The notes under the pieces were generated by a model. That model worked only from the letters and a program-made list of their open reading frames with translations, was not told the DNA's origin and ran no database searches. A stretch of 353 nucleotides of DNA, taken from Escherichia coli. GTDB lineage: Bacteria; Pseudomonadota; Gammaproteobacteria; Enterobacterales; Enterobacteriaceae. Positions 1-353 of this stretch are shown here, one piece after another. Both the position numbers and the translations under genes were made by a program. How positions within the stretch are numbered: the first letter of the stretch is position 1; every line of letters starts with the position of its first letter. The stretch lies in the NCBI RefSeq assembly GCF_003334335.1, contig NZ_QOWQ01000207.1, one strand, 5' to 3'.

Positions 1-353
1 AACGGACTGTACGCCGTCCAGATATGGAATGTGATGGAGCGCGGCGGCGGAATTTCATTATCCGCGGCGCTGAAAAACGTCAGACCGTCGCGGGTCCACA
101 TCCCCGTGTTTTCACAGATCCACCGCCCGTTGCTCTGGTCAAGCTCAGACTGATGGATCACGCAGCCATGATGTTCACAGAGGTAGAAAACGCTTTCGGG
201 GCTGTCCTTCTCCCATTTAAGGCCAAAAGGCGTGGACTCATCGCCAAATTTCAGATACTGCGCCTCCCCACAGTGCGGGCAGGGCACATAAAAACGCATG
301 AAATGCGCCGACTCGTTGGCCGCTTTTTCGATCTGGCAGGAGCCTTTTATTTT
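1..353 (-). CDS. Phage terminase large subunit, lambda gpA family (homolog of lambda gene A product); internal fragment, partial at both ends
   Basis: Minus-strand frame with codons at 353-351, 350-348 ... 5-3 is open for all 117 codons. The translation contains blocks that I recognise from lambda gpA: CQIE(K/R)AA.ES.HFMRF, CPHCGE.QYLKFGD, TPFGLKW, SVFYLCEH, TRDG, and the C-terminal block TFHIWTAYSP. Plus-strand frames 1 and 2 have stops at 151-153 (tga) and 32-34 (tga). Plus-strand frame 3 is also open but is the exact antisense register of the coding frame. The match to lambda gpA is from memory, not a computed alignment. Confidence 0.93.
162..281 (-). other. Cys cluster C-x2-C-x30-C-x4-C inside the terminase CDS (CPHC ... 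CEHHGC); candidate zinc-ribbon-like metal-binding motif
   Basis: Cysteine codons read directly from the sequence: 279-281 (gca, rc tgc), 270-272 (aca, rc tgt), 177-179 (aca, rc tgt) and 162-164 (gca, rc tgc). The spacing gives CPHC, then 30 residues, then CEHHGC. The same spacing appears in lambda gpA as I recall it (CPHCGEEQYLKFG ... YLCEHNAC). Metal binding is inferred from the pattern, not demonstrated. Confidence 0.45.

Follow-up and report, generated by a model that had tools for sequence, protein, structure and literature searches.

A probable zinc ribbon inserted in the ATPase domain of lambda-type terminase large subunits

Background

Does the large subunit of lambda-type terminases hold a structural metal site inside its packaging motor? 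The question is raised by a 353-base stretch of Escherichia coli DNA (the window), whose minus strand encodes four cysteines arranged in two pairs. An initial annotation of the window took these cysteines, together with adjacent histidines, for a conserved site with the spacing of a zinc ribbon or a treble clef. Lambda terminase counts among the three archetypal motors of viral packaging, and we know of no experimental structure of it to date. A zinc module built into or attached to a nucleic-acid motor is nothing unusual; PriA, T7 gp4 and herpesvirus pUL28 are examples. A zinc ribbon in a lambda-type large terminase appears to be undescribed so far. PDB sequence searches with the protein fragment encoded by the window and with the full-length protein returned no homologue and no gpA-family structure. 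Within the open-access literature of PMC and bioRxiv, we found no report of zinc binding, metal analysis or cysteine mutants of gpA. Neither zinc nor cysteine is mentioned for gpA in PMC6379665, PMC10810279, PMC9410871, PMC9611059, PMC7824862, PMC3985635, PMC5512222, PMC9855967, PMC12315714 and PMC7911831.

The window encodes part of a prophage terminase large subunit

Frame 1 of the minus strand is the sole frame open across the entire window (117 codons, no stop), while the remaining frames contain short ORFs only. The plus-strand ORFs, 20-40 aa long, were read as antisense noise. Rfam gave no RNA family on either strand of the window, and there was no match in NCBIfam. The open frame, the DNA identity to annotated genes and the Pfam model GpA_ATPase agree on an in-frame fragment of a terminase large subunit (TerL) of 117 aa at positions 3-353 (minus strand), equivalent to residues 216-332 of a 642-aa protein. 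GpA_ATPase matches the fragment itself at E=5e-16. In the near-identical full-length protein, GpA_ATPase (PF05876) covers residues 48-293 (E=7.5e-55) and GpA_nuclease (PF20454) covers residues 323-601 (E=7.6e-71); PHROG 15, 'terminase large subunit', matches too. Lambda gpA (J02459.1) is 69% identical to the fragment.

At the DNA level, the window is 100% identical to prophage TerL genes of E. coli APEC O18 and several other strains, 98% identical to the gene of Escherichia phage PhiR12_1 annotated as 'terminase DNA packaging protein A', and ~91% identical to the phage 21 gene. Along the 98%-identical phage locus the genes run Nu1 - A - W - B, with the terminase gene between Nu1 and W/portal, and the conserved gpA-family residues K76, R79, G81, D178 and E179, which represent Walker A, Walker B and the catalytic Glu and lie outside the window, were seen on the same locus. 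From these matches the window can be assigned to the terminase large subunit of a lambdoid (phage-21-like) prophage, of the gpA family. Copies related to the window (at least 80% coverage) occur in 1867 of the 5426 complete E. coli genomes, or about one third, a measure of how widespread lambdoid prophage terminases of the gpA type are in this species. These copies number two per genome in the median and five at the maximum, and nearly all of them are chromosomal.

A four-cysteine cluster at positions 162-281

Translation of the minus strand bears out the cluster proposed at positions 162-281 and its spacing of C-x2-C-x30-C-x4-C. The first putative zinc knuckle is C25-P-H-C28 of the fragment, corresponding to C240 and C243 of the full-length protein (window 270-281, minus strand). 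Thirty residues separate C28 from C59, which opens the second putative knuckle, C59-E-H-H-G-C64, a C-x4-C variant formed by C274 and C279 (window 162-179, minus strand). Within this second knuckle, H62 (H277; window 168-170, minus strand) stands where the fourth ligand is normally found, a position held by Cys in 79% of the family and by Asn in lambda. Lambda gpA carries CPHC...CEHNAC at residues 240-279 of J02459.1; the lambda motif CEHNAC was correctly cited in the initial annotation. In addition, residue A31 of the fragment (window 261-263, minus strand) is Ala where PhiR12_1 and lambda have Glu (CGEAQ versus CGEEQ); this column, the third residue past knuckle 1, is variable in the gpA family.

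The pattern C-x2-C-x(10-60)-C-x(2-4)-C arises in 0.015% of random 117-mers at 1.1% Cys and in 2% of shuffles of the fragment, which has six cysteines in 117 aa. The pattern in a single sequence is therefore only suggestive, and its weight rests on conservation in the family. The same 2% is what favors a reading with no metal at all, by which the cysteines would be a chance pattern in a Cys-rich segment or would be kept for disulfides or catalysis. Disulfides are argued against by the cytoplasmic location of the protein, and the family comparisons given below make the whole reading extremely improbable.

Conservation across the gpA family

At E<=0.001 the gpA family numbers 8202 cluster representatives. 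When the query was aligned with 110 near-full-length representatives (111 diverse proteins, 28-70% identity), the only invariant columns were the catalytic Glu179, C240 and C243. In a larger set of 234 sequences, the percentages of which are weighted by 119 mutually similar sequences recruited with a profile built on the most divergent clade, every sequence has C240 and C243, 233 have C274, all 234 have a cysteine at the +3 and/or +5 position of knuckle 2, and the complete set of four cysteines is likewise found in 233. A fairer sample of 115 representatives at 50% identity gives the same picture. A profile made from distant members recovered only close relatives of that clade. The expectation that all four cysteines would be invariant in a diverse gpA alignment is thus borne out for C240 and C243, and for C274 with a single exception, but the position of the fourth cysteine moves.

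The other parts of the segment are far less constrained. The two further cysteines of the fragment, C6 and C80, vary freely without conservation, which also counts against a reading of the cluster as metal-free. With frequencies of 58% for H242, 47% for H276 and 2 of 234 for H277, the histidines beside the ligands cannot be kept as part of the conserved site in which they had been included. The spacer of 30 residues applies to the window protein; across the family its length varies from 19 to 49 residues, with modes at 30 and 24.

For sampling independent of the motif, phage genomes were searched by tblastn with the ATPase core only (residues 40-235). The family tail (E from 1e-70 to 1e-3) is represented by eleven distant phages with 24-32% core identity. 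A regular four-Cys ribbon was found downstream of the core in nine of the eleven distant TerLs, which belong to phages of Clostridium, Fusobacterium, Roseobacter, Rhodobacter, Vibrio, Bordetella, Salmonella and Pseudomonas. Synechococcus phage S-CBS3 (454-2337) has an irregular knuckle 1 that reads MPCCG in place of CxxC. In Wolbachia phage WO of wMel_AMD (MN180252.1, 1688-3316) the motif reads CPHC...C, and the fourth Cys is replaced by Tyr (YVCIEYSGK). Since this record is marked UNVERIFIED and the Tyr is not shared by WOVitA2 (HQ906663.1), which has a normal CIEC at knuckle 2, the loss is probably due to a defective prophage in decay or to an error in sequencing and is not read as a functional variant.

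Adjacent cysteines were also noted in two other proteins, namely in knuckle 2 of the family relative P0100 (GKCCG) and in Pseudomonas phage LPPA56 (812-2827; MCCNEEC). Several cluster representatives (P0004, P0005, P0013, P0014, P0023, P0020 and P0140) are 800-1150 aa long. Some of these long representatives have a lambda-like N-terminal part of 350 aa followed by unrelated sequence, and two have an extension of ~440 aa ahead of the TerL part. Such over-long proteins, which may be fusions, frameshifts or assembly artefacts, were left out of the alignments.

The fourth cysteine alternates between two positions

Counted from C274 in the 234 sequences, the fourth cysteine is found at +3 only in 175, at +5 only in 49 and at both positions in 9. 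The family norm at knuckle 2 is therefore C-x2-C, and C-x4-C is a minority form (about 21-25%); the window protein and lambda are among the 49 sequences with Cys at +5 only. All 49 sequences that lack Cys at +3 have it at +5, within an alignment that may be off by one or two residues near knuckle 2. The vacated +3 position is filled by Asn in 42 of the 49, and His, as in the window protein, is rare. On a neighbour-joining tree calculated without the ribbon columns, the two positions of the fourth Cys require at least 12 and at least 20 state changes, although parsimony counts on such a quick distance tree are approximate. The switch between +3 and +5 occurred repeatedly, and the sequences with cysteines at both positions look like intermediates.

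The presence of Cys at +5 whenever it is absent from +3, combined with repeated switching, would be expected only of a knuckle that needs a fourth thiol. Judged from these sequences, the requirement is strict, and it is the role of the fourth cysteine that is conserved, its position having no conservation of its own. The same observations, together with the invariance of the cysteines across the 234 sequences, stand against the metal-free reading introduced above.

The rarity of His at +3 bears on the identity of the fourth ligand in the window protein, where H277 could bind zinc instead of C279 in a Cys3His site. Position 277 holds the ligand Cys in 79% of the family, and a His placed there can serve as a zinc ligand. 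However, the window protein has kept C279, as have all 49 sequences without Cys at 277, lambda with its Asn at 277 must use C279, and a His found at 277 in only 2 of 234 sequences does not appear to be selected as a ligand. We consider a Cys3His site unlikely and retain C279 as the probable fourth ligand of the window protein.

Fold class of the cysteine module

A family profile of the 117-residue segment, compared with PDB sequences, gave its best match to 1QYP (Thermococcus celer RPB9) with both CxxC pairs in register, at an E-value of 1.1e-4 that is marginal, zinc-ribbon matches being partly driven by the Cys pattern itself. Further profile matches were RPA12, RPB9, PolD DP2, the T7 primase zinc-binding domain, L44e and L33, all of which are zinc ribbons. 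Single homologous segments match the Pfam zinc-ribbon models TFIIB, TFIIS, Lar, IS1595 and GRF. Zinc-ribbon matches of this kind were obtained for two members at E<=0.001 and for 11-17 at E<=0.1; for the TFIIS-type model PF01096, one of 71 homologous segments matched at E<=0.001 and seven at E<=0.1. One relative has a precomputed match to PF08271. The window's own sequence reaches GpA_ATPase only in Pfam and no zinc-ribbon model; as it stays below the PF01096 threshold, the gpA ribbon resembles the TFIIS-type family and cannot be filed as a member of it.

AlphaFold2 models, in which no metals are placed, reached pLDDT values of 95.1 for the full-length protein and 93.7 for the fragment. Fold searches with the fragment gave no significant match. 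In both models a predicted beta strand leads into knuckle 1 (aa 18-24 of the fragment, residues 233-239; window 282-302, minus strand), and the knuckle lies between this strand and strand 246-248. The ribbon body between the knuckles (aa 29-58; window 180-269, minus strand) is delimited by the models and by column frequencies; it is predicted to consist of a strand at aa 31-33 and a beta hairpin at aa 44-48/51-58, and its conserved residues are Q247, L249, W251, W262, P267 and Y272. Knuckle 2 is placed in the loop between strands 266-273 and 280-281.

The tip of the hairpin is D50-S51-P52 (window 198-206, minus strand), as located by alignment to 1QYP and by column frequencies, and the family consensus there is D-D-P. 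P267 is conserved at 83%, and an acidic residue occurs within four positions ahead of the conserved Pro in 112 of the 115 representatives. The wider family consensus W-x-x-D-D-P-x-T-A-x-Y-x-C-E-x-C-G parallels D-E-P-x-T-x-F-Y-x-C-x-x-C-G of 1QYP. The gpA hairpin tip resembles the D-E-P tip of TFIIS/RPB9 ribbons, and the likeness to TFIIS-type ribbons goes beyond the cysteines. In TFIIS, this D-E-P tip carries catalytic acidic residues.

The initial annotation had left the choice between a zinc ribbon and a treble clef, and the models and profiles favor the first. A treble-clef finger is compatible with the cysteines as such, since a CxxC knuckle with a distant second pair of ligands fits it as well as a ribbon. 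Nevertheless, in both models the second pair sits in an inter-strand loop rather than at a helix N-terminus, and the profile matches are ribbons, which renders a treble clef very unlikely. An iron site, either a rubredoxin-like Fe(Cys)4 center or an Fe-S cluster by which the terminase would sense redox state or oxygen, would share the CxxC...CxxC arrangement of rubredoxin knuckles, and the identity of a metal is not readable from sequence alone. We regard iron as highly improbable, because the profile and Pfam matches are all zinc ribbons with none from rubredoxin or Fe-S families, and because the gpA family is present in phages of aerobes and strict anaerobes alike. To our knowledge, no coloured protein has ever been reported in decades of lambda terminase purification, which likewise counts against iron. 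With conservation, ligand relocation, profile and Pfam matches and predicted structures in agreement, the proposal of a structural four-Cys site in the gpA family is supported, in the form of a probable zinc ribbon with strand-flanked cysteine pairs.

Placement inside the ATPase domain

The full-length model matches solved large terminases, namely those of Sf6, HK97, T4, D6E and P74-26. Its strands follow in the order 71-76, leading into Walker A (76-83), then 174-178 with Walker B/E179, then 208-213, and then 233-239, with the ribbon starting directly behind it. The locations of Walker A, Walker B/E179 and strand 208-213 lead us to infer that strand 233-239 corresponds to beta5 of the ASCE ATPase core.

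Past the ribbon, a predicted beta-rich extension comprises aa 65-107 of the fragment, with conserved G291 and W293 (window 33-161, minus strand). The segment from W293 to T321 is bimodal in length, with ~27 aa in lambda-like proteins and ~8 aa in a large divergent clade; accordingly, the beta extension is clade-specific and the ribbon is universal. The chain is predicted to return to the ATPase core with the strand T-F-H-I-W-T-A (321-326), followed by a conserved Y-S-P (window 3-32, minus strand), in which Y330 and S331 are at least 90% conserved. Helices 336-346 and 350-360 follow this strand in the full-length model, and a lid subdomain has been proposed for lambda at 327-364 (PMC6379665).

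A beta-rich insertion at lambda residues 239-319 was described by Prokhorov et al., 2023 (PMC10810279), in a text where the words zinc, cysteine and Cys do not occur. The four-Cys cluster is the first half and the conserved core of that insertion. The cluster had at first been located between the ATPase core and the nuclease region, and this placement has to be revised. GpA_ATPase covers the module, a core strand (233-239) precedes it and the lid (327-364) follows, so it lies inside the ATPase domain and does not serve to link the ATPase to the nuclease.

Comparison with known systems

The TFIIS/RPB9/RPA12 ribbon (PF01096; 1QYP) shares with the gpA module the C-x2-C...C-x2-C arrangement, with a spacer of ~24 residues in minimal gpA forms, as well as a three-stranded ribbon and the motif D-[DE]-P-x-T-x-x-[FY]-x-C-x-x-C-G before and across knuckle 2. 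Whereas the TFIIS-type ribbon is a free C-terminal domain of an RNA polymerase subunit or factor, that of gpA interrupts a P-loop ATPase, and the lambda clade differs further by its 30-residue spacer and C-x4-C second knuckle.

HK97 TerL (6Z6D), the closest solved large terminase, has the same two-domain architecture and ASCE fold (Foldseek E=2.4e-9). Lambda residues 29-366 superpose on HK97 residues 6-272 at 2.7 A (PMC10810279). HK97 TerL lacks the 239-319 insertion and hence the zinc ribbon.

Among other nucleic-acid motors, T7 gp4 primase-helicase (1NUI) provides an example of a zinc ribbon on a phage DNA motor, with a weak profile match over knuckle 1 (E=0.067). However, its ribbon belongs to an N-terminal domain that recognizes primase template sites and is not an insertion in the ATPase. 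PriA helicase contains a Cys-rich zinc-binding region inserted in its motor domain, with two zinc ions. It is similar to gpA in having a Cys4 zinc module inside the RecA/ASCE-type motor domain of a DNA translocase, but the insertion point is different, two zinc ions are bound and the families are unrelated. The PriA structure 6DGD was found at rank 20 in the fold search with the full-length model, a match that most probably reflects the shared ATPase core and not the zinc module. Zinc fingers also occur in a viral genome-packaging terminase, in herpesvirus pUL28/pUL56 (PMC9611059). These are located in the TerS-like regulatory subunit and not in the ATPase subunit, and their sequence is unrelated.

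Proposed role of the ribbon

We propose a Zn(Cys)4 site made up of the four cysteines, within a small TFIIS/RPB9-like ribbon of three strands that is inserted in the gpA ATPase domain, and assign this reading a probability of about 0.8 from the family comparisons and predicted structures. In the predicted structures, knuckle 1 (C240/C243) stands directly at the end of core strand 233-239. From there the chain forms a short strand and then a beta hairpin, and the ribbon is closed by knuckle 2, with C274 and either C279, as here, or the Cys at 277 of most relatives. The beta-rich extension follows, before the chain re-enters the core at 321-326 and continues into the lid helices. A single zinc ion may cross-brace both knuckles, which would let a module with no hydrophobic core of its own fold and would keep it rigidly attached to the ATPase.

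In ASCE ATPases, the nucleotide-binding motifs are found at the C-terminal ends of the core strands, and the lid comes after strand beta5. With this layout, a ribbon placed immediately after beta5 should sit at the nucleotide-binding/lid edge of the domain. There it could offer a rigid contact surface for a neighbouring ring subunit or for DNA. Such a contact role is the most likely one, though much less certain than the metal site itself, and the ribbon itself probably takes no part in the chemistry. As its first two cysteines are no less invariant than the catalytic glutamate, the ribbon is probably essential.

By analogy with TFIIS, the ribbon might instead be a working element. Its acidic-Pro tip would then tune metal-dependent catalysis at the RNase-H-like nuclease site or at a neighbouring ATPase site of the ring, similar to the action of TFIIS in RNA polymerase, or the ribbon would grip or read cos DNA. 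We hold this to be a doubtful proposition; if true, it would help to account for the switch of gpA-type terminases between their nuclease and motor states. It might also explain how gpA-type enzymes cut cos with no HNH helper protein, given that HK97-type terminases use such a helper and HK97 TerL is devoid of the insertion.

Implications

A zinc ribbon in gpA, whether as the contact surface favored here or otherwise, would be unsurprising in kind, but it would represent an invariant feature overlooked in a classic system. If the ATPase domain has an obligatory zinc site, the metal matters for purification, for the choice of buffers with respect to chelators and oxidants, and for structural work. 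The unexplained 239-319 insertion would at the same time gain a defined and mutable core. Finally, if the site is obligatory, the repeated relocation of its fourth ligand between +3 and +5 would represent a natural experiment on how a metal site drifts while its function is kept.
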